64,000 nt of DNA from a virus (taxonomy: Duplodnaviria; Caudoviricetes), in the IMG/VR virus record IMGVR_UViG_3300032216_001376, positions 2,081 through 66,080 of that record. One strand, written 5' to 3'. The translations under genes were made by a program, and so were the position numbers. Positions 643 to 40,702 of the stretch are shown piece by piece. A model generated the notes under the pieces. That model was given only the letters and a program-made list of their open reading frames with translations, was not told where the DNA came from and made no database searches. The stretch's first letter is position 1. Every line of letters begins with the position of its first letter.

Positions 643-2799
643 TTACGGCCTTTCATCGCCAAACTCTGCCGTAATCATTAACCTACCCATTTCAAAGTTT
701 CCATCAATTTCATTTGACTCAAACCTTAAACGCATCAAACGATGCTCTACGCGCAAGTCAATCTTATCTGTATGTGGCTCAAAGTAATATGGCCCAGAAA
801 CTTCTTCGGTTGCACTATTAGCAAACTTACGACCCAAAATGGTCATTGCCATGGTGCCAGTTTGTAAAAAGTTTGGCTCAACACGACGTAAGTGCATACG
901 GCGGTTAACCCCAATCAGCCCCTCTTGGCTCGGGCTACCAGTCAACCAACTAATATCGCTTGTAGTAACGCTAGAATATACCGCAACCTCTGTGTTAAGG
1001 TTAACTTGATTTTGACCAAACTCATGTTGCCAAATTGTATAACCACTAGTTTGGTGGTACACCAATGATCCTGGCAATACGTTGATACTGTTTGAACCAG
1101 AAAACGTAATAAAAGTAACCCCCGGCATTCCAATGGTTGTGTTAATGGTGAACGCTGCCGACGTCACTTGGTAGGTTTGTGTTGGGTCGTTGCCTAATGA
1201 AAAGGTTAATATACTGCCTGGCGGAAATATAGACGTCACGTTACCAGCAATATACATTTGGTTATTAGTAGCCGCGGGTAAACTGGCGGGGTTTGTAATG
1301 GCAGTATATGGCGCACTAAATGACGGCGTGTAGTTCCAGTCCGCCCATATTGGCGTTGGAAATAACTCAGTAGTGTAACCGCAAGAACGTTGTGCTCCAG
1401 TAGCTTGTCCGGCGTCGTACCAAAGTTTGTCTTTTACGTTATAAATAATAGCGTCAGTACACTCTGAAGCCGTACCACGAGGATAAAAGAACCAAATCTC
1501 GTTGTATCTAGGCACTTTAGTCGCCCAGACTTTTTGACGTTGTGTGTAGTTTAAGTTGTTAAATAAGTAGTTTACGTTCTTATCATTTGCCACTACTGAT
1601 ACGTTACCGTTGTACTGGTAAAATCGATCAACACCCATCCAATAAAACACACCGTCCATCTCCACTACTGCGTTTGATGATATGATAGAGATTTGGCTTG
1701 AAACGATGTCGTAGTTCCAGTATTGACTTACCGTAGCCGTGCTAGACGCCGATGAGTTAAATGAAACACGAATTAAACTATCCGTTGCCCAAAACAATCC
1801 AGCGGGTGAATTTGTACCACCGCGCATTGGCATGCCTTTAATAATCTTAGAAGCGGCAACGTTGACTTGGTTGGCTAATGGGCCATTCCAATCATAAAAA
1901 TTTTGTTGTGCGTACGTGCTACTGACGTTGTTGTTAGCAATGTAACCGTGTGATCCATACACAAAAATAAATGGATACAGCACACAAATACCGCCGTCTA
2001 CACTGATAGGTTGATAGGTTGGGTTTTGTCCTGCGCTATCCGACAATCCACTAAACGACCATGTGTTGCCTGATGTTGGCGTAATGTTACCAACTAGTAG
2101 TTGTGATGGAACGCCGTTATCAACGTCAACAAGGTTGTACCCTGGGTGAGCAAATATTTGTAACTGCCCGCCCTGTGGGCTGAATTGTGAGTCAAACTGC
2201 CACGTTATTCTGTATGGTCCAAAGTTTGGATCTTGTGTAAACACCGCCGAGTTGTTTAACCAAACTTTTGTTGGGCTACCAGTAATGGTGCCCGTCACGT
2301 TAACTGTGGTGTTTGGCGATGAGTACGTAGCCGTTGTCGTTACAAAATTAACTGGTGATGACTGGTTAAAAATAACATTAGTGCCCCCAGGGAATTGTGC
2401 GGTTACGTTACCGGCAATTACAAAACTCGAGCTAGTTTGGGACACTAACGTAAATTGCACCGTGCCGGGTAATATGTTAACTTTGAACGGTCCACTACCA
2501 GTGCCGTAGTTAATCCCGCAGGTAAACACATCTAGTTCTTTATAGTTCCCAGCAAAAATATAGTTGACGCCATCATACGGCTGTGAAACCATGCCACGAT
2601 AAATACCAACGTTACTGGTAAACAATGTGCGATAACCACCCATTTTTTTAGGATCGCCACGTTGAAACCTACACCATACACCTTCGGTATACTGTTCATT
2701 TTGAAACTGTGTACCATCGCGCTTAATTCCAGCTGGTATTGCTAGGCTGTAAATTGAAGTGTATTGCGACTTATCCTGTTGCTGATTATCAGCCGCCAT
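643..2799 (-). CDS. Tail hub/nozzle protein (P22 gp10-like position and size, 718 aa)
   Basis: N-terminal PGIKRDGT...WCRFQRG..KMGG motif typical of podovirus tail stabilisation proteins; beta-rich; follows the adaptor genes. Confidence 0.6.
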   Translation of the reverse strand: MAADNQQQDKSQYTSIYSLAIPAGIKRDGTQFQNEQYTEGVWCRFQRGDPKKMGGYRTLFTSNVGIYRGMVSQPYDGVNYIFAGNYKELDVFTCGINYGTGSGPFKVNILPGTVQFTLVSQTSSSFVIAGNVTAQFPGGTNVIFNQSSPVNFVTTTATYSSPNTTVNVTGTITGSPTKVWLNNSAVFTQDPNFGPYRITWQFDSQFSPQGGQLQIFAHPGYNLVDVDNGVPSQLLVGNITPTSGNTWSFSGLSDSAGQNPTYQPISVDGGICVLYPFIFVYGSHGYIANNNVSSTYAQQNFYDWNGPLANQVNVAASKIIKGMPMRGGTNSPAGLFWATDSLIRVSFNSSASSTATVSQYWNYDIVSSQISIISSNAVVEMDGVFYWMGVDRFYQYNGNVSVVANDKNVNYLFNNLNYTQRQKVWATKVPRYNEIWFFYPRGTASECTDAIIYNVKDKLWYDAGQATGAQRSCGYTTELFPTPIWADWNYTPSFSAPYTAITNPASLPAATNNQMYIAGNVTSIFPPGSILTFSLGNDPTQTYQVTSAAFTINTTIGMPGVTFITFSGSNSINVLPGSLVYHQTSGYTIWQHEFGQNQVNLNTEVAVYSSVTTSDISWLTGSPSQEGLIGVNRRMHLRRVEPNFLQTGTMAMTILGRKFANSATEEVSGPYYFEPHTDKIDLRVEHRLMRLRFESNEIDGNFEMGRLMITAEFGDERP

Positions 2800-4074
2800 T
2801 TAGAACGTCCCGCCACTAATCAGTGTGGCATTAAGTTGAGCGTTAACCGTCACCAGTGGTGCAGATAAGTTGGTAGCATTAATGTCAACTATTTCTACAG
2901 CGTTTGCTGATAGTCCCAAGATGCCTATACCACGCAAGTACATACCCGTAGTGGCGTCGTTTAAGAAAGAGTAAGACGGCGCACCAGCGGTGCCATTAAT
3001 AGCTTTAAACGTTGACGATGACGATGCGTTTAGTACATATAAAAACTGACCGTCACTTAACAATGTATAAATATTACCAGTGGACAACACTAAAGGCGAT
3101 TGACTACTGCCTTGATTTTGGAATGTAATATTGTAACCAGACTGATTGGTGCTGTTTGATAAAATGTATAACTGCGTAATTGCTGGTAGTGTTACAGCCA
3201 AGGTTGTAGTGCGTGATCCAGATTGTGCTACGTATGTTTGAATAATTGGTGCATTAGACACTAGGTTTAACGTGCTGCCCGTGATAGCGTCAACGTCGTA
3301 TGTAGCAGAAGTAAACACCACATTATTTGGTGTCACCCAACCAACGGTAATGTACTGGTTGGCACTAGCATCATAAAATATAAACCCAGAGTCGCCGGGG
3401 TTTGTGCTAATGGACGACGACCCGTTAATTGTTTGTGGTGATGGTGGCGTAAATGATAACGCACCAGATCCGCTGTTTCTAAAGGCAATAAACCAACCTG
3501 TCGTCAGTGTTGCTACTGATGGTAGTGTAATGTTACCAAGTCCACCAAGCCAGTTATATGTTGAGGCGCGGTTGGCGTTAGTAATGGTTGGTGCTACAGA
3601 TATGTCAATTACGTTTTGCGTGGTTGCTAATTGACCACTAACGGTTGTTAAACCCGCACCAGCCAATGTAGCGGCGTCTGCTGAAGACGTGCCCGCACCA
3701 AATGTTACGTTACCCCAAGTGCCCGCCGCCGTTGTATTGTCTTGTAGATAAAAATACTTTGATACGCCCGCAGCAATCGTAACTGAGTTTCCACCAGCGT
3801 AATCCTTAATTGAAAATGAATTGGCGCCAAGGTTGCGGAACAAAATATCGGCACCAACAGTCCCTTGGTTTGCTTGTGGTAGACTAATAGATAACCCAGT
3901 TGTCGTGGCCGTGCAGTCAATGATGCGTGTCGCTGGGTTTTCACCATCTCCTTGGTTAACAATTGCTGGCCAAAATAATGGGGTATCGGCACCAAATGAA
4001 AGTGATGAATAGGAAACGTCAGTTGGCGTGACAACGGTGCCTGTAAATGGTGAGGTATAAACTGGTGTAGTCAT
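2800..4074 (-). CDS. Tail-associated structural protein (424 aa)
   Basis: T/S/G/A-rich beta-strand composition; lies in the tail gene block. Confidence 0.55.
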   Translation of the reverse strand: MTTPVYTSPFTGTVVTPTDVSYSSLSFGADTPLFWPAIVNQGDGENPATRIIDCTATTTGLSISLPQANQGTVGADILFRNLGANSFSIKDYAGGNSVTIAAGVSKYFYLQDNTTAAGTWGNVTFGAGTSSADAATLAGAGLTTVSGQLATTQNVIDISVAPTITNANRASTYNWLGGLGNITLPSVATLTTGWFIAFRNSGSGALSFTPPSPQTINGSSSISTNPGDSGFIFYDASANQYITVGWVTPNNVVFTSATYDVDAITGSTLNLVSNAPIIQTYVAQSGSRTTTLAVTLPAITQLYILSNSTNQSGYNITFQNQGSSQSPLVLSTGNIYTLLSDGQFLYVLNASSSSTFKAINGTAGAPSYSFLNDATTGMYLRGIGILGLSANAVEIVDINATNLSAPLVTVNAQLNATLISGGTF

Positions 4075-4077
4075 ATA

Positions 4078-4692
4078 TTAGGGCTCTTGTACGTTCGTAT
4101 TACGATCCACACGACGAATATCGTCTTCTTTTTTCAATGCATTTACTGCGTCTGTGTAGTATTGTTTCCACACTGGGAGCTTGTCTAAAGCTTTTAAATA
4201 GCCCTGCGCTTGTAATAATGCACCGTAAAGCATCGCCTGTGGGGCAACTTGTGTCCATAGGTTCTGTTGGTTGTTTTCATCCAGTGGCTGAACTTCGGCG
4301 TAGTAAATAATCTCCACTGGGTACGCTACGTCTGGTTTTGGTGCAAAATTCCAGTTGCTGTAGTCATAGTCTGCGTAGTACAGTGGCTGTCCGCCAGATG
4401 ATTCTGACAAGTACATAGACACATAGTCTTGACTACGTAACAGTATCGGCTGGCCGTTAACCTTCATTGACACAGTCTTGCGCCAACGCGCGGGTTTGTT
4501 GAGCACCGTTTGGTTAACCGCTAGGTTAGTCTCAACCACAATCAACTGCATGTATGTCTTTAACTCAGCCGCAATGGACGACTCAGCCAAAGCAATAAGG
4601 TTAGGAATCTGCGCAATAAAGTCAGCGTCATCTCGCTCCATGTATTGCTGGATATTTGACACCAGCGAGTCATATGTCATTATTACGCTCAT
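4078..4692 (-). CDS. Head-tail adaptor-like protein (204 aa)
   Basis: MTYDSLV..IQQY.ER N-terminus, G.P.YYA and LYGALL.A..YLK motifs seen in podovirus adaptor proteins. Confidence 0.55.
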   Translation of the reverse strand: MSVIMTYDSLVSNIQQYMERDDADFIAQIPNLIALAESSIAAELKTYMQLIVVETNLAVNQTVLNKPARWRKTVSMKVNGQPILLRSQDYVSMYLSESSGGQPLYYADYDYSNWNFAPKPDVAYPVEIIYYAEVQPLDENNQQNLWTQVAPQAMLYGALLQAQGYLKALDKLPVWKQYYTDAVNALKKEDDIRRVDRNTNVQEP

Positions 4693-5762
4693 CTTGTGTA
4701 GTAGCTTATGTTAGGTTGGAAATAGATAGGTGATTTGTCCCTATCCTCTTCACTGGCTTGTAAGAATGCCTTTGCGGCTTGCGCTTCTAAGTACTGAACC
4801 CTAGCCATATCCACACCTGGTAACTGCAATGACATAGAGTGTGACAACTGTTTTTGTACGCAGTTAATCCAACGATCCGGCACGTAGATTTGGTTTGTTA
4901 ACGAGCCAACGTCCATCATTTGTTTTTCAACAAGCAACTGAAACATTTGGTATGGGTTGTTAGGCACTGGCCATAAGTACATAGACGGCTCAATGGTTCT
5001 GTCAAACCAGTACTGCAACGAGCGTACTGACGGAAACTGTTTGTTTGGTAGGTTCCAATAGTCGTCACGATTGAGTCGTGCTAACGGAATAACTTGTTGG
5101 CTGGTTGAGAATACAATTTGACGTACTGAGAAGGTTGTCGCTACGGTTTCACGCAAACGGTAAAACAAGTGTGGCTCTGTGATAGATATGTTGTAGTACT
5201 GCCACTGCTTGTCCACCATGGTAATTTCTGGGAACGTTTGTTTGGTAATCCAATTAATACCGTCGTCACTGTACTCATACACTAGGTTAAACGTCTGCGT
5301 GCCACTACCGTTAACGTAACAGTTCCAACCAACGTAATAGACGCTTTGTGCTTGTTGATATCCAAGACCAAGCCAGTTCTCTGAAATCGTTGACGTTGCT
5401 AAGGATGTTAACGTGGAGTTTTGGTTGAATGCGTTGGGAGACGTTGAGTTGTCTGTTGGTAAGTACGTAGACGCTTGAATGTTCTGAACGTACACCCAGT
5501 TAGCCTCACGCACGTCGATGACTGTCTTTGGGAGTACCAACTGTTGTTGCTGTGTCAAAGCACCATACAGTTGGTTTTCTAATAGCCACAGATTTACGCC
5601 AAGGTTGGATAGGTTTTGTAGGTTGTAAAACAGCGCCTGCTTGCCGGCGTCAATGTACTCAGGCGTCATTTCTTCTGCTGTCTTACCAGCATCACGGAAC
5701 GCATAAGAAAGTAACTGGTCAACATTAATCGTTGTGCTACCAGTTGTATTAGAATAAGCCAA
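4689..5762 (-). CDS. Head-tail connector / tail tubular protein A-like (357 aa, TTG start)
   Basis: N-terminal helices (LNxxLQNLSNLGVNLW), G.P.QYWFDR..P..YLWPVP motif; inserted beta domain. Confidence 0.5.
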   Translation of the reverse strand: MAYSNTTGSTTINVDQLLSYAFRDAGKTAEEMTPEYIDAGKQALFYNLQNLSNLGVNLWLLENQLYGALTQQQQLVLPKTVIDVREANWVYVQNIQASTYLPTDNSTSPNAFNQNSTLTSLATSTISENWLGLGYQQAQSVYYVGWNCYVNGSGTQTFNLVYEYSDDGINWITKQTFPEITMVDKQWQYYNISITEPHLFYRLRETVATTFSVRQIVFSTSQQVIPLARLNRDDYWNLPNKQFPSVRSLQYWFDRTIEPSMYLWPVPNNPYQMFQLLVEKQMMDVGSLTNQIYVPDRWINCVQKQLSHSMSLQLPGVDMARVQYLEAQAAKAFLQASEEDRDKSPIYFQPNISYYTR

Positions 5763-5764
5763 GG

Positions 5765-5932
5765 TTATCTCCCGCGGCCAGAAGCTCGCTTAGTTACTTT
5801 TTGTGGTAGTTTATTAGTTGCTGGCCCAGCTTTAACAAACTCTTTACCAACCTTCTTAGGTATGCCAATGTTACTTTTACCGGCGGCGGCCGCGTACATT
5901 GCGCCCTGCTGGTCTTTTGACTGATAGGGCAT
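5765..5932 (-). CDS. Small basic virion-module protein (55 aa, [36 protein letters not shown]...)
   Basis: Manually translated; ATG overlaps the upstream TAA; [11 protein letters not shown] motif common in aquatic phages. Confidence 0.7.
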
Positions 5933-6813
5933 TAACGTTTTCCAAATAAATTGGCCATTAAGTCTGGGGAACCAGGCTGGACTTGTGGTCCATCAGGATA
6001 CGGGCCGTCACCATAACCGGGATCTATTTGTACCGGCGGTTGTATTACGGGTCGACCACCAAATCCACCACCACCAAGCCCGCCACCAAATCCAGTGTTA
6101 AAGTCGTTACTATTGTTTGTGTTAGTGTTAGTATTAGTGTTGTTATTAACGTTGTTATTCATATTACTATTACTATTACTATTACTATTAACGTTACTAT
6201 TCATATTTGGATTGTAAGGACCATACCCGGGGGCTGGATATCCGGGGTCTGGCTGTTGTGGAAATGGCTGTGGATTAAATGGTGGTTCATCTGGAATTGC
6301 TGAACCGCCCGTAGCAAACTTTTTGATTGTTTTTCCACCCTTGCCGGCCGCGCTAGGTGCGTCAGCCTTTTTGTTACCCGTTGGCTTTACTTTTTCCATT
6401 TTAACAGCGTCGCCAGATTTTTTAGATTTTTCTTTCTCTACGTCACTAACGCCAGTTTTACCGCCAGCCTTTAACATCTTAGGCTTTTCTTTTTTAACCG
6501 CAGCAATTTCTTTTTTGTCTGTGCTATCTTTTTTGACACCATAAACAGCGCTGCCGTCTTTAAACTTCTTTACGGTGCCGACTTCTTTTTTAGAACGGCC
6601 ACCCTTTTTTAACTTAATCTCTGTTGGCTCTTTGTCGTGCTCGGCTCTGTCGTGCTGCTTGAACGCCTTCTTAATCATTGCCTTGTCTTGTTTTTTGTCG
6701 TCGACTTCGCCGCCTTTTTTCATGGCTTTGCCGCCGCCACAGTACGCTTCTGATTGAACAGAGCCGCCTACTTTGAAGCATTTCATTTTAGGTAATGTTT
6801 TAAATCCGTCCAT
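5932..6813 (-). CDS. Lys-rich, low-complexity virion-module protein with repeated xKxGG/AxGG motifs and an Asn-rich tract (293 aa)
   Basis: [33 protein letters not shown] motifs; N/S repeat near 6105-6205; downstream of a late promoter. Confidence 0.7.
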
Positions 6814-6862
6814 TTTATATCCTCGAGGTTGTTATTATTAAAAGGGTGATCAGGCCCTATAT

Positions 6863-6895
6863 TTATTAATGCAAAAAAATCAACATTTAAGCCCT
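6863..6895 (-). promoter_or_regulatory. Phage late promoter, class A (GGGCTT-N16-GCATTAATAA)
   Basis: Same 16-nt spacing as six other copies; overlaps the endolysin stop codon. Confidence 0.6.
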
Positions 6896-7409
6896 AAGTA
6901 TCCTTTAAAAACAAGGCTTTTTCTTGTTTTCTTCTGTTGACTAAGACACTAGGATGCACCCAGTCCATAAAGTAATCCGCCGCCAGTTTGTAGTTGCCGG
7001 CGTTAAGTGCCTTGACTAGCCTTGATGTCTTAAAGCCGTTGGCTCCAATGTTGTAGCACAGGCTCGCTAGGGCGTCGTATTGGTTCTGGGTAATGGGTAC
7101 CTTCACCGCAGTCCTAATAGCGTCGTCACACCACTGTGCGTCGCTTTTAAACAGCTCTTCTACCTGCTGGTCTGTGAGTACTGTGTTGATGAGGTGCTGC
7201 TCGTTGGGCTTGATAAGGTGCCCAACGCCAGTTGTCCACAATCCTTGTGTGTCCTTGTAGGCCTTGTTACGCTTGCCCTCAAATCGAATAATGGTGTCAA
7301 GGGTTGACTTAGTAATTGCCATAATTGCCTCTATTTCTTGATCTCTATAGTTGGTAAATAATGGCAACAGTAATCCTGCCAATACAATACATACGATAAA
7401 TTTTTTCAT
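6894..7409 (-). CDS. Endolysin, GH24 phage lysozyme with a hydrophobic N-terminus (possible SAR)
   Basis: E-x8-D-x5-T triad (FEGKRNKAYKDTQGLWTTGVGH); Q.QYDALASLCYNIG; RRKQEKALF. Confidence 0.9.
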   Translation of the reverse strand: MKKFIVCIVLAGLLLPLFTNYRDQEIEAIMAITKSTLDTIIRFEGKRNKAYKDTQGLWTTGVGHLIKPNEQHLINTVLTDQQVEELFKSDAQWCDDAIRTAVKVPITQNQYDALASLCYNIGANGFKTSRLVKALNAGNYKLAADYFMDWVHPSVLVNRRKQEKALFLKDT

Positions 7410-7909
7410 TACTTTTCGGTGGGAGTTGATTTCCAGAGCATTTGATCTTTTGCCTGACTGCCACTTGACGACCCAAAGTAAAATGATATAACTTGTTCTG
7501 CCTTGGCAGACAGATAGCCAACCAGTGTTCCCGCCATTGCCGACTCTATTTTTGAGTAGCCTAAAAGCGTGCCCACCACTACGGTAATAAAAGAGATAAC
7601 AATAATAACGGCGAGGGTTGGAACCAGTGTGGACTTTACCTCTGTCTGCATCTGACGCGCCGACTTACGATCGGAAACCGCCAACGCCTCAAAGTTTAAA
7701 CCCAATTCTTTTTCTGTCTTCTTAAGCTCCATCTCGGCTATTTTGACCTGTGCAATCTGCTCGGATGTCATGTTACCGTCGTCTAGCATCTGCTTGACAA
7801 CCTCTTGAGACACGCCGAATACCTTTGCTATAGCCTCGTAGGCAAGACCGCCTAGCGGCCCGCCAATTGCCCTTGCAATGGTTGGTGCGATGGTTTCTAG
7901 CCAAGACAT
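7409..7909 (-). CDS. Putative holin (3TM/GTA-holin-like)
   Basis: APTIA.A.GGPLGG N-terminus, coiled coil, two C-terminal hydrophobic helices ending FYFGSS; adjacent to the endolysin. Confidence 0.65.
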   Translation of the reverse strand: MSWLETIAPTIARAIGGPLGGLAYEAIAKVFGVSQEVVKQMLDDGNMTSEQIAQVKIAEMELKKTEKELGLNFEALAVSDRKSARQMQTEVKSTLVPTLAVIIVISFITVVVGTLLGYSKIESAMAGTLVGYLSAKAEQVISFYFGSSSGSQAKDQMLWKSTPTEK

Positions 7910-28213: not shown

Positions 28214-28246
28214 CTATTAATGCACAAAGCGGATAATTACCGCCCT
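28214..28246 (-). promoter_or_regulatory. Phage late promoter, class A (AGGGCGG-N16-GCATTAATAG) upstream of the portal gene
   Basis: Exact motif; the TAG stop of terL forms its first bases. Confidence 0.75.
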
Positions 28247-29690
28247 ATTGTGCGTAAGGGTTTGAAAATTTTCTGTTTAGCTGGTCGTCAATGTAAGAGT
28301 AGTCCCTAGCCGGCAGTGGGTCTAACTGGATCCAGCCTGAGTCTCTAAGCACCCGCAAGGCTTGTGATAGTGAGTCCACGTAGTCGTCATGTCCTTTGGC
28401 CTCAGGAAACGAGCACACTTGCCGAATAAATCTTTTGGACCAGTGGGCAAATTCGCCTTTTTGTGTTGGCTCTTCTGGTATGAACACTTTGCCCTTGGCC
28501 ACAATTGGCGCGACAATGTTGATACGCTGGACCTTATCGGCACGTCCCGGGTTGTAGCCGCGCACTGGTACGCCTGCGCCTTGTAGCTCTTGAATGAGTG
28601 AGATACCGGCGGATTTGTCCTCCATGAGCAGTAAGTCAGCCTTACGGCCCTTGGCAAACGTGTTGTCCGCGCCGTACACCACCTCCTTAAAGTCGTTGAT
28701 TACTTTACGTCTAAGCTCTGGGTACGCCAAGTGGGCATCCCACGAGTCTAAAAGAATGATGGCCGTGCCGGCGTCTTCTTGTTCAAACACACCCCAGACC
28801 GTGCAGGCCGTCGGATCGTTGACTGTTTTTTCACTGGTGGCTGGATCGTACGAGGCAATCACGTACTCTAGATTGGGTGTTGGCTTATTGGCTGGCCACA
28901 TGCGAAACTGTTTACGTTTAATAATTCCCGCCTCTTCGGGGTCAAGAATCTCCCCATAAATTTCTTGGCGTCCTAGGTTAGTGCCGTCGTAAGACTCGAG
29001 CTGTTTGAAAAATGTGTCCGACAAGTTGGCGCGGTTGTCGTACGAGCTAGCGCTGGCCACGTACACGTCGCCGCCAACCTTGCCCTCGTTTAAGTCAACT
29101 ATTAATTCCAGTGGCTTGGGGGTTGTGGTGATAATCTGTTGCACGCGCGGTATGCGCGGGTCTGTAAGACGCAACGTAAACTGTGCCTGATCGTACGCGT
29201 CGTCGATGTACTCAAAGGCGCACAGCTCGTCAAACCACGCGCCATGGTATTGCTTACCGCGGTAACGTTCTGGCTCCGAGCCAGGTATGCCCTGAATCAG
29301 CGAGCCGTTGATGAGTGTGATTTCCAGTAAAGACTTGTTGTAGTCGCGGATAATCGATCGAGGCAGGATGTTTAGTAGCCCTGAGTCGCCCTCAAAGCAT
29401 GTCGCGCGTATGTCGTTTGTTGTTGGCGCGGTGACTAGCCACCGGGTCTTGTCAAACTTCCACGCACGCTCGCCAATCCAATTGGACGCGGTCCACGTCT
29501 TACCGGCACCTCGACCAGCAAGCATTAAAAAAGTGTCGTACTCGCCATCTTCCGGCTCTTTTTGGTGTGGCAATGCTGATAGCTGGTACTTAACCATCCA
29601 CATAGCACCCTCTACCTCAGACTTAGGAAGGTCTTTGTACTTGTTTGCAAATTCTGCTAGAATTTTTTCTTGTATTGCTGTTAACGACAT
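28245..29690 (-). CDS. terL: Terminase large subunit
   Basis: Walker A LAGRGAGKT, Walker B WFDEL, TTTPKP motif C, nuclease YDPA...D.TAC and HDDYVDS.SQA. Confidence 0.95.
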   Translation of the reverse strand: MSLTAIQEKILAEFANKYKDLPKSEVEGAMWMVKYQLSALPHQKEPEDGEYDTFLMLAGRGAGKTWTASNWIGERAWKFDKTRWLVTAPTTNDIRATCFEGDSGLLNILPRSIIRDYNKSLLEITLINGSLIQGIPGSEPERYRGKQYHGAWFDELCAFEYIDDAYDQAQFTLRLTDPRIPRVQQIITTTPKPLELIVDLNEGKVGGDVYVASASSYDNRANLSDTFFKQLESYDGTNLGRQEIYGEILDPEEAGIIKRKQFRMWPANKPTPNLEYVIASYDPATSEKTVNDPTACTVWGVFEQEDAGTAIILLDSWDAHLAYPELRRKVINDFKEVVYGADNTFAKGRKADLLLMEDKSAGISLIQELQGAGVPVRGYNPGRADKVQRINIVAPIVAKGKVFIPEEPTQKGEFAHWSKRFIRQVCSFPEAKGHDDYVDSLSQALRVLRDSGWIQLDPLPARDYSYIDDQLNRKFSNPYAQ

Positions 29691-30981: not shown

Positions 30982-31092
30982 ATTTGTACCACTAGTACCA
31001 CTTGTACGACGTTTTTGACCTTACCCCCAGTATATTTATTTTATTTTTTTAAAAATAATAAAAAGAATAAAAGAGTAGTACTAGTGGTACAA
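30982..31092. repeat. Inverted repeat copy 1 (quasi-palindromic, AT-rich core; ori/pac-like)
   Basis: Near-identical to the reverse complement of 38017-38137; ends TTGTACCACTAGTAC ... GTACTAGTGGTACAA. Confidence 0.85.
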
Positions 31093-31451
31093 CCCAGACA
31101 AATATCAAGGACTTACAGAAGTCACTAAGGGTTTACCCTAAGTAAACCTTATAGAATTTCCCAAAAAAAAAAATTTAAAAGTCACTTTTTTGCACAAACA
31201 CTGGAAAATTATACGAGCTACTGATCTGTGGGGCCCCCGGCCCCGGCCCGCCGGACAGGACCCGTTAAGGGTGTGTGGTTTATAAACAACACCCCCCGAA
31301 GTGAGCACTCACACACATAGGCACAATGTAAGTAAGCGCTCACTGGGGCGGTGCGCTATGTAAGTAAGCGCTCACTGGGGCGGTGCGTTAAGTGAGCACT
31401 TACACACATAGTCTAGGCGCCCTACAGACTTAACTAGCACCAAGCGCAGAT

Positions 31452-31470
31452 GAGAATGATTCTCATTCGC
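31452..31470. promoter_or_regulatory. Fur-box-like site 1 (GAGAATGATTCTCATTCGC)
   Basis: 14/19 match to GATAATGATAATCATTATC. Confidence 0.45.
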
Positions 31471-31614
31471 AATCAGCCTCGGCGCCCACTCTGTCCCTCA
31501 CTGTATGTTAGTGCACACTGACTTAGTGGCAAACGGGCCCACTCTGTCCCTCACTGTTAGTGTGCGCTTACTGACTTACTGGCCACTCTGTCCCCCTGCG
31601 CACCGAGCCTAGAT

Positions 31615-31633
31615 GAGAATGATTATCATTACG
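31615..31633. promoter_or_regulatory. Fur-box-like site 2 (GAGAATGATTATCATTACG)
   Basis: 15/19 match to the Fur consensus; same AGATGAGAATGATT prefix as site 1. Confidence 0.45.
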
Positions 31634-31983
31634 GTCTGATAGGCCATGCGGGCGCGACGGACACGGTGCGGTGGGCGCCCCAACATGGCTAATAACATCT
31701 TCCACAATTACCCACGATATCCCACTGTTGCACGCCCACAACATGGCATTTAAACGCCAATAGAGGGGGCTACAAGGCGTTTAATTCTTGTCTGAGGCGT
31801 CTGCACTAGACCCGATAAGATAACGCAACACAGAGCGTTCTGAGAGGCAGGCCTGCGAGCCTTATAGAACAAGCGTGTCAAGTGAAATATTTATGACAAT
31901 TGGGGCGAATTGTGTAACATATGTGTAATCATTTCACGATGTGATAAAGTCCAATTATTTTGCATAACCTAGGGTTTACCCCA

Positions 31984-32012
31984 ATGACAGACGCCAAAAA
32001 TGCGAGGAGAAT
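31984..32012 (+). promoter_or_regulatory. Host sigma70-type early promoter (ATGACA-N17-GAGAAT)
   Basis: Canonical spacing; preceded by TAGGGTTTACCC; upstream of the first early gene. Confidence 0.55.
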
Positions 32013-32120
32013 AGTAGTTATTGGAGGGGCGGTGCTAATCACCGCAAGTGGCGAGTTAAAGTACCTACCACTGTAAACATGAGGCAAGCCTAGAGGATGG
32101 AAACGCTCTAGAAGACCTAA

Positions 32121-32172
32121 AGGGTCTACTGGTTATGTACCAGTACTGACGAGCACGTAAGTGCGAAACCCT
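32121..32172 (+). ncRNA. Hammerhead ribozyme, type III
   Basis: AGGGT-C | TACTGGT-tatgt-ACCAGTA | CTGACGA | GCAC-gtaa-GTGC | GAA-ACCCT: full core and three stems; predicted cut after C32126. Confidence 0.9.
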
Positions 32173-32191
32173 AACATAAAGGATATATACC

Positions 32192-32446
32192 ATGGCAAAC
32201 TTTACATTCTTAAAATTAATTGACTCACACAAAGTAGTTCCACTTGCATTACTGCCTGAGAAACTAGGCGACGATGTATATACGTGGCAAGTAGGTGATA
32301 CAGACGTTTTAGAGTACAACACAAAGACAAAGCAGTTTAAGTATGAAATATATGATTTCATCGACGACGATTACCAATTGGTTAAAACACTTGACCATAA
32401 AGACGCACAGTTAATCGCATATGCTGAGAACATTATTTACCAGTAA
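32192..32446 (+). CDS. Early hypothetical protein (84 aa)
   Basis: AAAGGA RBS; first ORF after hammerhead 1. Confidence 0.7.
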   Translation: MANFTFLKLIDSHKVVPLALLPEKLGDDVYTWQVGDTDVLEYNTKTKQFKYEIYDFIDDDYQLVKTLDHKDAQLIAYAENIIYQ

Positions 32447-32449
32447 ACA

Positions 32450-32503
32450 AGTCGAAACAGCCGTCGAGGCTGTCTGAGCGTAAGGCGCTCACTGATGATG
32501 ACT
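32450..32503 (+). ncRNA. Hammerhead ribozyme, type II
   Basis: AGTC-GAA-ACAGCC-gtcga-GGCTGT-C-TGAGCG-taagg-CGCTCA-CTGATGA-T-GACT; predicted cut after C32474. Confidence 0.85.
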
Positions 32504-32523
32504 AACAACCTGAAAGGATTACC

Positions 32524-32742
32524 ATGTTACCAAAGCAATTACTTAGAGATAAGACCGTCATGGACATGATGTTAAAGATAACCACAGACGACTTAAAAGA
32601 ATACGCCAACACAACAGACAAACAAGTGTTCGTCACGGACTTGTTTGACTGCTCAATTAGTGACAGGTTCATTAACGTATACGAGCAGATAGTCATTGAC
32701 TTGTGCAACGCCAACAACATAACCATCGATTGGAAAGACTAA
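32524..32742 (+). CDS. Early hypothetical protein (72 aa)
   Basis: GAAAGGA RBS right after hammerhead 2. Confidence 0.7.
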   Translation: MLPKQLLRDKTVMDMMLKITTDDLKEYANTTDKQVFVTDLFDCSISDRFINVYEQIVIDLCNANNITIDWKD

Positions 32743-32743
32743 T

Positions 32744-32890
32744 ATGAAAGTTAAAGACCTAATCGAGCAGTTAAAAGACTGCGACCAAGAGCAGTACGTT
32801 TTCCTTTATATTGACGGTAACCGATACAGTGCCGACATGGTCGACGAGTTGGACGACTGTGTGGATATCAACACTCATGCTGAAAGGTAA
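32744..32890 (+). CDS. Early hypothetical protein (48 aa, MKVKDLIEQLKDCD...)
   Basis: Manually translated; MKV.DLI..L N-terminus common in phage early genes. Confidence 0.65.
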   Translation: MKVKDLIEQLKDCDQEQYVFLYIDGNRYSADMVDELDDCVDINTHAER

Positions 32891-32894
32891 TAAT

Positions 32895-33104
32895 ATGAAA
32901 TACAAATTAAACATTAAACGTGATGTGGACATTTCGAGCGATTATTTCGGTAATACAGATTACATTTTAAATACGCCGGCCGGTTTTCGTATTAATGACT
33001 CTGATATTTATCATATTAGGGGGTTTGACTCACTGGCTGACTTAAGAAAGTATGTTAAAGAAGGAAATGTTATTTCTTGCAATTGTGAGGGGTGCACAAA
33101 ATAA
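32895..33104 (+). CDS. Early hypothetical protein (69 aa, MKYKLNIKRD...)
   Basis: GAAAGG RBS; ends C.C..C. Confidence 0.65.
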   Translation: MKYKLNIKRDVDISSDYFGNTDYILNTPAGFRINDSDIYHIRGFDSLADLRKYVKEGNVISCNCEGCTK

Positions 33105-33107
33105 CCA

Positions 33108-33160
33108 AGTCGAAACAGCCGGCCGGCTGTCTGCACGTGAGGCGTGCACTGATGATGACT
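33108..33160 (+). ncRNA. Hammerhead ribozyme, type II
   Basis: AGTC-GAA-ACAGCC-ggcc-GGCTGT-C-TGCACG-tgagg-CGTGCA-CTGATGA-T-GACT; stem I covaries with the 32450 copy; cut after C33131. Confidence 0.85.
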
Positions 33161-33180
33161 AACAACCTGAAAGGATTACT

Positions 33181-33315
33181 ATGTACACACTATATAAAAC
33201 TACAAGCATTAACGAGCCGTTTAGAGAAGAGAAGTTTGCCACAATAGAAGAGGCCGTCGAAGAGGCCGGCTACTTGTTAGAGATGGGCTACATCGTACAA
33301 ATACTAGAGGACTAA
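33181..33315 (+). CDS. Early hypothetical protein (44 aa)
   Basis: Manually translated; same RBS cassette as 32524. Confidence 0.65.
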   Translation: MYTLYKTTSINEPFREEKFATIEEAVEEAGYLLEMGYIVQILED

Positions 33316-33316
33316 T

Positions 33317-33565
33317 ATGAATACTAGACGATTACAACAGGCCGTAGACATTATCAAAGAGCGTTGCAAGCACGACCTGTATGCGGACGGGGACGTTTGG
33401 TACTTTCTCAATAATTACTCAGTCAACATCCACGACAACGAGGGCGAGGACGTGTTTGTCGTCAACGTGTACCCGTACGACAGGGATACAGGCATCACGG
33501 ACTACAGTGTGCAGATAGACCTAGAGCCGTTCAATAAACAGTTTGAATTAATTTTTGAGAACTAA
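33317..33565 (+). CDS. Early hypothetical protein (82 aa)
   Basis: GAGG RBS; compact spacing. Confidence 0.65.
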   Translation: MNTRRLQQAVDIIKERCKHDLYADGDVWYFLNNYSVNIHDNEGEDVFVVNVYPYDRDTGITDYSVQIDLEPFNKQFELIFEN

Positions 33566-36601: not shown

Positions 36602-36868
36602 ATGGTGAATATTATTGACGAATTAGGCGCAGTAAACCAAGCAATCAAAGAGTTAGAGGCTACCGCACGTAAACTCAAGGCAGAGTTAATCGCTCGTGGC
36701 GTTGGGACGTACGACGGCGAGCAGTACATTGCAGAGGTGCAGTCATACGACCGTGCTAACATCGACGCAACGTTGGTACGTGAGTTGGCTGACGAGGACT
36801 TTATCAGCCAAGTAACAAAGATTCAGCACGTTAACGCCGTCGTTGTTAAGATGCAAAAGGCAGTTTAA
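36602..36868 (+). CDS. Hypothetical protein (88 aa)
   Basis: AGGAG RBS; IDELG...I.EL.A...LK..L N-terminal helix. Confidence 0.65.
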   Translation: MVNIIDELGAVNQAIKELEATARKLKAELIARGVGTYDGEQYIAEVQSYDRANIDATLVRELADEDFISQVTKIQHVNAVVVKMQKAV

Positions 36869-37443
36869 TGAAGGACAAGGACCTGCTGACGACTTACTTA
36901 CAGGGGATGCTCGCTGAGGACATCGGCGGGCTTACCAAGGAGCAGGAGTACAAACTGTCTGAGCAGATAGGCAAGGGTGACACGGACGCATTAAACACGC
37001 TGATACGCCATAACTTACGGTTGGTTGTCTTCATGCTTAGGAAGACAACGGCGTGGCAACACAGCATCATACCCCCCGAGGACTTGGTGCAGATGGGCAA
37101 CGTCGCACTGGTGCTCGCAGCAAGGCGTTGGACGCCAACGAAGGGCGCACGGTTTGCCAGTTACGCCGGCAATTATATTTTGCGGTTCGTGACACGAGAG
37201 TTGGACAACACGGAGCGCACCATTAGGCTACCGATTAACATCGTCGAGGCGGTCAAGAAGATGAACTACATCGAGCGACAGTTAAGGCAGGCCCTTGGAC
37301 GGGAGCCAAAGATTAAAGAACTGGCGGACGCTATGGACGTATCGACCAAGCGAATCAGTCAGTTAAGGGGGTACGTTATGCGTGAGCCCATCTCACTAGA
37401 AGCATTTTTAAATGACAGGCACGAGGAAACAAACGATGAGTAA
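36868..37443 (+). CDS. Phage sigma70-family factor, regions 1.2-3 only (no region 4)
   Basis: LTKEQE..L...G...A...LI.HNLRLVV; EDLVQMGN.AL..AA.RW.P.KG.RFASYA; RTIRLP; LGREP...ELA; stops after EPISLE. Confidence 0.85.
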   Translation: MKDKDLLTTYLQGMLAEDIGGLTKEQEYKLSEQIGKGDTDALNTLIRHNLRLVVFMLRKTTAWQHSIIPPEDLVQMGNVALVLAARRWTPTKGARFASYAGNYILRFVTRELDNTERTIRLPINIVEAVKKMNYIERQLRQALGREPKIKELADAMDVSTKRISQLRGYVMREPISLEAFLNDRHEETNDE

Positions 37444-38016: not shown

Positions 38017-38137
38017 TTGTACCACTAGTACCACTAGTACTACTCTTTTATTCTTTTTATTCTTTTTAAAAAAATAAAATAAATATATGGGGGTAATAGT
38101 CAAACTAAGTGGTACAAGTGGTACTAGTGGTACAAAT
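38017..38137. repeat. Inverted repeat copy 2 (ori/pac-like)
   Basis: Reverse complement of 30982-31092 with a few substitutions and one extra ACCACTAGT unit. Confidence 0.85.
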
Positions 38138-40688: not shown

Positions 40689-40702
40689 TTTGCATTAATA
40701 TA
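40689..40702 (+). promoter_or_regulatory. Phage middle promoter, class B (TTTGCATTAATATA) before the primase gene
   Basis: Perfect 14-mer, one of four. Confidence 0.7.

Follow-up and report, generated by a model that had tools for sequence, protein, structure and literature searches.

Clustered hammerhead ribozymes at the head of a putative early operon of an uncultivated phage: a candidate system for self-cleavage of a polycistronic RNA into gene-length messages

Background

The role of hammerhead ribozymes in phages is an open question (PMC6765202; PMC13725137). Type II hammerheads and gene-flanking clusters of hammerheads in phage transcripts were published in 2011, when clustered phage and prophage hammerheads, in three arrangements, cleaved as predicted in vitro; one of these sets, from Agrobacterium tumefaciens, flanks the anti-restriction gene ardA (Perreault et al. 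2011, PMC3088659). Here, we analysed a stretch of 64,000 nucleotides (hereafter the window), corresponding to bases 2081-66080 of the IMG/VR record IMGVR_UViG_3300032216_001376, a complete virus genome of 66,080 bp with direct terminal repeats, in which three hammerhead ribozymes (HH1, HH2 and HH3) punctuate a run of small genes. The kind of system is thus already known, and what is new here is the present member, a large pseudoknot-free subfamily scoring below the Rfam threshold, and numbers on the packing of stop codon, ribozyme and ribosome-binding site (RBS).

Our reading, to which we assign a probability of about 0.6, is that the early polycistronic RNA of this phage would cleave itself into gene-length mRNAs with defined 5′ and 3′ ends. 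The hypothesis of gene-length processing is that of Perreault et al. 2011 (PMC3088659; review PMC6765202) and is therefore already published, the insulator aspect being the present sharpening. The motifs, the selection on them (visible as covariation) and a fixed stop-ribozyme-RBS architecture in ~100 relatives are observed, and they are described below.

Results

Three complete hammerheads in the window

Both strands of the window were scanned with a descriptor requiring the core CUGANGA, GAA, the A15.1-U16.1 pair, H17 and three helices, in all three circular permutations and with one optional nucleotide after A9. The scan returned exactly three complete hammerheads, all on the plus strand and within 1040 nt, and since 100 dinucleotide-preserving shuffles gave a mean of 0.07 descriptor matches per window, this number lies far beyond chance. 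The descriptor, direct reading and folding support the following features:

32121-32172, plus strand: HH1, type III hammerhead; stems I/II/III of 7/4/5 bp; predicted cut after C32126
32121-32125/32168-32172, plus strand: stem III of HH1; stem I at 32127-32133/32139-32145; core CUGACGA at 32146-32152
32153-32156/32161-32164, plus strand: stem II of HH1, with a GUAA loop; GAA at 32165-32167
32450-32503, plus strand: HH2, type II hammerhead; stems of 7/4/6 bp; predicted cut after C32474
32450-32453, plus strand: 5′ strand of HH2 stem II; GAA at 32454-32456; stem III at 32457-32462/32468-32473
32475-32480/32486-32491, plus strand: stem I of HH2, loop UAAGG; core at 32492-32498; extra U at 32499; 3′ strand of stem II at 32500-32503
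33108-33160, plus strand: HH3, type II hammerhead; stems of 7/4/6 bp; predicted cut after C33131
33108-33111, plus strand: 5′ strand of HH3 stem II; stem III at 33115-33120/33125-33130
33132-33137/33143-33148, plus strand: stem I of HH3, loop UGAGG; core at 33149-33155; extra U at 33156; 3′ strand of stem II at 33157-33160

An earlier note on this DNA, which had claimed one type III and two type II motifs on the coding strand, was thus right as to their number, types, coordinates and cut sites. All three have the full conserved core (C3 U4 G5 A6 N7 G8 A9, G12 A13 A14, the A15.1-U16.1 pair and H17 at the cut), and in HH2 and HH3 a single additional U stands between A9 and G10.1. Such an additional nucleotide after A9 is a documented and tolerated variant (PMC3705267, PMC4209133), found also in the hammerheads of Penelope-like elements (PMC4209133), and in the CChMVd viroid hammerhead a U at this place raised the trans-cleavage rate 3-4 fold (PMC3705267). 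For each isolated motif, the minimum free energy (MFE) fold and the centroid fold are both the hammerhead secondary structure, and for HH2 and HH3 the centroid remains the hammerhead fold in native context. HH2 and HH3 differ at two stem I pairs, in both cases by compensatory changes, and their stem II strands are identical (AGUC and GACU). By catalytic core, helices and covariation, the motifs are genuine hammerheads (Rfam clan CL00010). No further hammerhead was found in the window, either with the descriptor or with the covariance model R1 described below (filters off), and the remaining 2 kb of the genome are without hammerheads as well. An alternative type II reading of HH1 that uses GAAAC at 32100 was rejected because of mismatches in stem III.

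At the gathering score, Rfam gave no match in the window and none in 12 related loci. In E-value mode, Hammerhead_II (RF02276) matched 33108-33171, which is HH3, with 31.5 bits against a gathering score of 37 (E of 9e-4 for 3 kb and 0.019 for the whole window), and HH1 and HH2 gave only fragmentary matches. In the Rfam check that the earlier note had proposed, HH3 was thus matched below threshold, and HH1 and HH2 were not recognised as whole motifs. No hammerhead in the 12 related loci reached the threshold, so the low scores are a shortcoming of the models rather than of the motif.

Genes and fragments between the ribozymes

The predicted cuts would release a 348-nt fragment with one open reading frame (ORF) and a 657-nt fragment with three ORFs, and these lengths, ORF counts and AAAGGA sites agree with what had been claimed before. 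The features between and after the ribozymes are:

32178-32194, plus strand: AAAGGA Shine-Dalgarno (32178-32183) and ATG (from 32192) of ORF1, conserved with the nearest relative L037 (see below)
32192-32446, plus strand: ORF1, 84 aa, ORFan, the sole gene on the 348-nt fragment; stop codon at 32444-32446
32513-32526, plus strand: AAAGGA Shine-Dalgarno (32513-32518) and ATG (start at 32524) of ORF2
32524-32742, 32744-32890 and 32916-33104, plus strand: the three small ORFs of the 657-nt fragment
33170-33183, plus strand: AAAGGA Shine-Dalgarno (33170-33175) and ATG of ORF5 (33181-33315)

The start codons at 32192, 32524 and 33181 lie 19-20 nt past the last hammerhead base. HH1 is located in the leader of the first gene, and for both HH2 and HH3 the upstream stop codon lies 3 nt before the ribozyme, so that each fills an entire intergenic gap. 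The 3′ tails of these two copies, 24 bases from the hammerhead end to the base past the ATG, show a single difference, directly before the ATG. Taken as a cluster in the published sense, that is, at least two hammerheads on the coding strand flanking single genes or short blocks, the three flank one ORF and three ORFs. No Pfam match was obtained for the flanked ORFs, the only PHROG matches came from the 48-aa ORF and were all to function-unknown families (best phrog_5861), and no homologue of ORF1 was found in any fetched locus. Overall, the head of the operon holds three ribozymes and six ORFan genes in 1.5 kb.

A type II subfamily in uncultivated phages

A scan of IMG/VR with the stem III sequence of HH2 and HH3 gave 32 loci, nearly all of them with complete hammerheads. 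To avoid circularity, a second scan used the 3′ half only (two stem I bases, core, optional extra base, 3′ strand of stem II and AAC). Its 86 matches included 59 with a matching 5′ half within 55 nt, and in 55 the stems I and III, which were not part of the query, were fully paired; the remaining matches are chance occurrences inside genes. The covariance model R1, built from an alignment (A1) of 33 sequences, then gave 106 matches in 52 sources, amounting to 102 distinct sequences, in which 99.9% of the pair cells are standard pairs and 14 of the 16 pairs show compensatory changes. None of the shuffled and slid controls approaches the observed covariation. In the window, with filters off, R1 scored HH3 at 72.8 bits and HH2 at 69.9 bits, partly by construction since both are among the 33 training sequences, and found a partial match to HH1 and no others.

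The members of this subfamily have a stem II fixed at 4 bp and nearly invariant (GGUC/GACC in 97% of them, AGUC/GACU in the present phage), an invariant A flanking stem II on each side, a 17-nt stem I hairpin with the loop UNANG and a tail beginning with AAC, and they vary freely in the sequence of stems I and III. The extra U after A9 occurs in about a third of them (37 of 104 contexts). Both the published type II consensus and the Rfam model are defined by a pseudoknot, which the subfamily lacks, hence the sub-threshold scores. Indeed, a pseudoknot between loop I and the tail was considered and rejected, as in 93 members loop I is fixed as UNANG and shows no covariation with the tail, and the window offers only a 3-bp AGG/CCU pairing.

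Five other records whose TerL is 80-83% identical to that of the present phage carry type II copies, and one of them, a complete genome of 63.7 kb, has four at the corresponding place in its genome, ~2.8 kb away from where terL starts. In addition, a TerL homologue was not detected in 11 of the 12 near-complete carrier records, so the subfamily crosses phage lineages. Among cultured phages, a BLAST search of two modules against GenBank phages returned only Burkholderia phage Bcep176, and no significant module match was obtained for Caulobacter phage GB2A or a spring metagenome phage, which are the closest cultured phages by TerL. In bacterial genomes, the stem III pattern scan returned only pseudoknot-type hammerheads, mostly from genomes of the Clostridia type (Ruminococcus, Tyzzerella, Lachnospiraceae), and gave no host clue.

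Two further arrays deserve a record of their own. The densest cluster seen is in a 75-kb phage record, L201 (IMGVR_UViG_3300049458_000012), with eight type II hammerheads of the subfamily over 5.6 kb (2061-7659). In the cultured Firmicute Marinithermofilum abyssi (L070, NZ_BMHQ01000020.1), five type II hammerheads of the pseudoknot type stand in tandem at 7055-7776, 120-270 nt apart. The 35 nt past each of these copies hold no clear Shine-Dalgarno and start codon (ORFs were not checked), and this array differs in kind from the gene-punctuating arrangement.

Stop-ribozyme-RBS architecture across relatives

The position of the ribozyme relative to its neighbours is fixed. Of the 104 distinct type II contexts, 96 are followed within 70 nt by a Shine-Dalgarno and the start codon of an ORF of 25 codons or more, with a median distance from element to start of 19 nt (between 14 and 30 nt in 83 contexts). 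On the other side, 88 contexts have an upstream ORF, and in 76 of them it ends with a stop codon 0-5 nt ahead of the element. The leader is rich in A (44%) and C (22%), two or more copies occur on 31 of the 52 locus strands with a maximum of eight per locus, and successive cuts are spaced by a median of ~460 nt. The genes directly downstream are small (median 81 aa) and diverse, with 49 ORFs falling into 40 unrelated clusters. Out of 100 downstream genes scanned, eight had a Pfam match, and the PHROG matches were mostly to function-unknown families, with a few to replication and recombination genes (e.g., sliding clamp, clamp loader and RusA). The window fits this class, with the stop codon 3 nt before the element, the start 20 nt after it, spacings of 348 and 657 nt, and ORFans as flanked genes.

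HH1 and its type III relative

The nearest relative, L037, was identified by way of its sigma-like protein, which is 77% identical. At the equivalent place (L037:6226-6277), it too has a type III hammerhead, whose core, stem III, RBS and spacing are identical to those of HH1. Compensatory changes separate the two copies at three stem I pairs and at one stem II pair. The surrounding DNA is only about 64% identical, and the comparison provides good evidence, at the level of sequence comparison, for selection on the structure of HH1. The homology to L037 ends at 32198, which is 7 nt into ORF1 and directly past the HH1-RBS-ATG module; the segment 32199-33559 is replaced in L037 by one of 278 nt, with the right breakpoint at 33560, and L037 has no type II copies. 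A pattern scan for the type III family found the L037 contig as the sole true relative. Folding pointed to one more feature at this place, the 12-nt core of which is identical in L037:

32113-32127, plus strand: competing hairpin of 6 bp with an AAA loop, predicted to sequester the 5′ strand of HH1 stem III and the cleavage site

A block at 32020-32050 is near-identical in the window and L037, with poorly conserved flanks. A hairpin of 6 bp with the loop CUAAU lies in it, ~75 nt upstream of HH1, and the block might act as an RNA element of the leader or be bound by a protein. Two copies of the motif AGGGTTTACCC are present in the control region described below (31969-31990 and 31129-31141), one of them conserved in L037. 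The arms of this motif, AGGGT and ACCCT, match the two stem III strands of HH1 in sequence, which may be a coincidence or mark an operator.

Genome and locus setting

From its size of 66 kb and its direct terminal repeats, the phage looks lytic. The minus strand carries terL (28245-29690) and the structural genes preceding it, up to 31001, and is followed by a non-coding, repeat-rich control region of 1.2 kb (31002-32191). The plus-strand block starts at 32192, opens with ~20 small ORFs and then holds a sigma-factor-like gene (36868), a primase-helicase (40722), an SNF2 helicase, a DUF2800 nuclease, a ribonucleotide reductase and a family A DNA polymerase (PolA). Given this layout, the three hammerheads look like standing at the head of an early-to-middle rightward operon, which suits the 'first early transcript' of the earlier note. 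That phrase is itself a reasonable extrapolation from the layout, as no promoter was identified: a sigma-70 scan returned only weak matches, at a frequency not above shuffles (background), and the phage's own TTGCATTAATA motif has no copy in 31000-32190.

The TTGCATTAATA motif itself occurs in eight perfect copies, at 40690, 43917, 45795, 47439, 48108 and 49991 on the plus strand and at 6864 and 21109 on the minus strand. The chance expectation is much lower. Every copy points in the direction of the genes around it, and the early region has none, in keeping with a phage-specific promoter of middle or late genes that is read with the sigma-like protein (36868-37443). Long palindromic AT-cored elements stand on either side of the early region (30982-31092 and 38017-38137), at a position conserved in L037 and in the more distant relatives L038-L040; they could be origins, terminators or recombination sites. 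In these relatives, Rfam in E-value mode labels them as microRNA-like hairpins of ~110-130 nt. No other ribozyme class was found in L037-L040, the microRNA-like matches there being long palindromic hairpins. Within the control region, repeats in direct and inverted orientation are dense at 31300-31640, among them a ~30-nt unit present twice and three CCACTCTGTCCCTCACTGT-like words.

Discussion

Proposed mechanism and what weighs against it

During transcription, the local hairpins (stems III and I in the type II copies, whose arrangement suits co-transcriptional folding) would form first and the short open helix of 4-5 bp would close last, upon which the core would cut after C32126, C32474 and C33131. 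The upstream mRNA would then end with the stem III hairpin, rich in G+C, and one further nucleotide with a 2′,3′-cyclic phosphate, and the downstream mRNA would start with a 5′-OH directly on the stem I hairpin, followed by a short unstructured A/C-rich leader, the Shine-Dalgarno and the start codon. Each small early gene would in this way receive an identical, context-independent 5′ leader, which is the effect of an insulator. RNase E and RNase J sense a 5′-monophosphate, and 3′ exonucleases and poly(A) polymerase need a free single-stranded 3′-OH end, so that both ends of the released mRNAs would be expected to be poor substrates for decay that depends on the 5′ or the 3′ end. Adjacent cistrons would moreover be uncoupled. 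We infer that cleavage takes place in vivo and that it affects stability and translation; the stabilising effect and the host-takeover role of the flanked genes, both proposed in the earlier note, are putative.

Several observations weigh against this reading. The promoter of the operon, and hence the transcript itself, is something that we infer. The open helices are short (4-5 bp), and the type II copies are without the RF02276 pseudoknot (at least 4 bp between loop I and the nucleotides just 3′ of stem II), whereas the published pseudoknot gives fast cleavage. Bcep176, the sole experimentally tested subfamily member found, cleaved slowly, albeit with an A6C core change (PMC3088659). For HH1 in native context, the MFE structure has the upstream hairpin (-21.3 kcal/mol) and not the hammerhead (-19.4 kcal/mol), and since the competing hairpin is thus favoured by ~2-3 kcal/mol, HH1 may be slow or conditional. 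Finally, L038-L040 have neither a hammerhead nor another known ribozyme in the same region, so that the hammerheads are accessory or dispensable within the lineage.

Alternative explanations

The best placed of the alternatives, although unlikely, is that the ribozyme-RBS module serves mainly as a portable cassette boundary, a repeated linker of ~85 nt that spreads within and between phage genomes and offers homology for the shuffling of small accessory genes, cleavage being secondary. The promoter-stem-loop cassettes of T4-type phages are a comparison for such gene-shuffling linkers. Between this phage and the 63.7-kb relative (TerL 80% identical), the hammerhead modules are the only similar DNA in the part of the early region that bears the ribozymes (32.2-36.6 kb), and copies of the same genome have common tails through the start codon, both in the window and in the locus L005. 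The unrelatedness of the downstream ORFs, the presence of the subfamily in phages without a detectable TerL homologue and the left-hand end of the L037 homology, right past the HH1-RBS-ATG module, all point the same way. However, the right-hand breakpoint of L037 is not at a hammerhead, and no recombinase is associated with the elements. Strong purifying selection on the catalytic core, together with compensatory change in all three stems, indicates selection for RNA structure and not merely for DNA homology. Note that a role as cassette boundary is compatible with self-cleavage into gene-length mRNAs.

Quite unlikely, in our view, is a conditional and regulatory cleavage in which HH1 would be blocked by the upstream hairpin or by a factor acting there, and the type II copies by ribosomes terminating 3 nt upstream, the fraction cut tuning the dosage or timing of the early genes. 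Such an account would make use of the hairpin at 32113-32127, favoured in context and conserved in sequence in L037; this hairpin is nevertheless without covariation, so that selection on it as an RNA structure is unproven. It would also make use of the stop codons set 0-5 nt before the element, because a ribosome terminating there would cover the 5′ strand of stem II. Perreault et al. themselves raise regulated cleavage for slow phage variants (PMC3088659). Yet no ligand-binding or switch domain is present, and the centroid structure of HH2 and HH3 in context is the hammerhead fold.

The circularisation proposed in the earlier note found no support, and we regard it as very improbable. Here, the excised 348- and 657-nt RNAs would be closed by a host RtcB-type ligase or by the reverse hammerhead reaction into stable and translatable circular mRNAs, and the phage would gain exonuclease-proof early messages. 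The 5′-OH and 2′,3′-cyclic phosphate ends suit RtcB by established enzymology, and since HH2 and HH3 share their stem II strands (stem II is near-invariant in the subfamily, unlike the freely varying stems I and III), the ends of the 657-nt RNA can re-form a nicked hammerhead. The 348-nt piece, on the contrary, is unable to re-form a hammerhead from its own ends. The cross-compatibility of stem II was considered as a general rule for circularisation and rejected, since successive hammerheads of the locus L019 have incompatible stem II strands. Moreover, a phage-encoded RtcB (PF01139) is absent here and in 19 other carrier records, with positive controls, and Perreault et al. looked for circular or spliced products of clustered hammerheads and detected none (PMC3088659). 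That the motifs are inactive relics or chance look-alikes without function, as their scores below the Rfam gathering score and their absence from some relatives might suggest, is hardly credible in view of three complete motifs with intact cores against 0.07 expected, the extensive compensatory change in ~100 relatives and in the HH1 homologue, and the fixed position relative to neighbouring genes.

Altogether, self-cleavage into gene-length mRNAs remains our preferred reading. In a hypervariable early region, the modules alone are conserved as DNA, and they provide a model of natural ribozyme insulators that would standardise both mRNA ends of mobile early genes. Our results also suggest that annotation pipelines under-count such elements. 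The locus represents no new kind of system; it is a clean, compact and convenient test case for a known one.

Comparison with known systems

The closest parallels are the clusters of the A. tumefaciens ardA locus, Clostridium scindens and Azorhizobium caulinodans (PMC3088659), in which, as here, mixed-type hammerheads on the coding strand flank single genes or short blocks, and for which the same role was proposed, that of cutting long phage transcripts into gene-length mRNAs. They differ in that they belong to prophages of cultured bacteria and that their cleavage was shown, whereas the present phage is uncultivated and looks lytic, and the cleavage of its hammerheads is a prediction. The tight packing of stop codon, ribozyme and RBS is quantified here, and we found no statement of such packing in PMC3088659.

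Compared with the RF02276 type II consensus, HH2 and HH3 have the same permutation (stem II open), the same core and looped stems I and III. That consensus, as given by Rfam and Perreault et al., has a stem II of 1-3 bp and a pseudoknot of at least 4 bp, in contrast to the fixed 4-bp stem II, the 5-nt UNANG loop I, the invariant flanking A and the lack of loop I-tail covariation in the present subfamily. The intergenic hammerhead of Burkholderia phage Bcep176 belongs to this subfamily: its stem II has GGUC as the 5′ strand, its stem I hairpin is near-identical, and it begins 2 nt past a stop codon. It differs by the A6C core change, a cleavage rate <0.1 per min (PMC3088659) and a longer stem III, and it lies at an operon end facing a convergent gene and not before an RBS.

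The HHphage hammerhead of the haloviruses HF1 and HF2 is alike in its place, 13 nt before the first ORF start of an early polycistronic transcript, with a mapped 5′ end at most 3 nt from the cut (PMC3088659). It differs in belonging to an archaeal virus and in its core insertions, its salt-dependent activity and its single copy. In the early transcript of T7, RNase III cuts between the early cistrons and leaves gene-length mRNAs with 3′ hairpins. The likeness to T7 is in function only, since there a host protein enzyme acts on double-stranded RNA and leaves 5′-phosphate and 3′-OH ends, whereas here the RNA would cut itself and leave 5′-OH and 2′,3′-cyclic phosphate ends. The RiboJ insulators also have a hammerhead directly upstream of the RBS, and their cleavage gives a fixed 5′ leader independent of the upstream sequence. 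This likeness is again one of function only: RiboJ is an engineered derivative of a type III satellite-RNA hammerhead, to which a hairpin was added, whereas the modules of the phage are natural and mostly of type II and would also set the 3′ end of the preceding mRNA.

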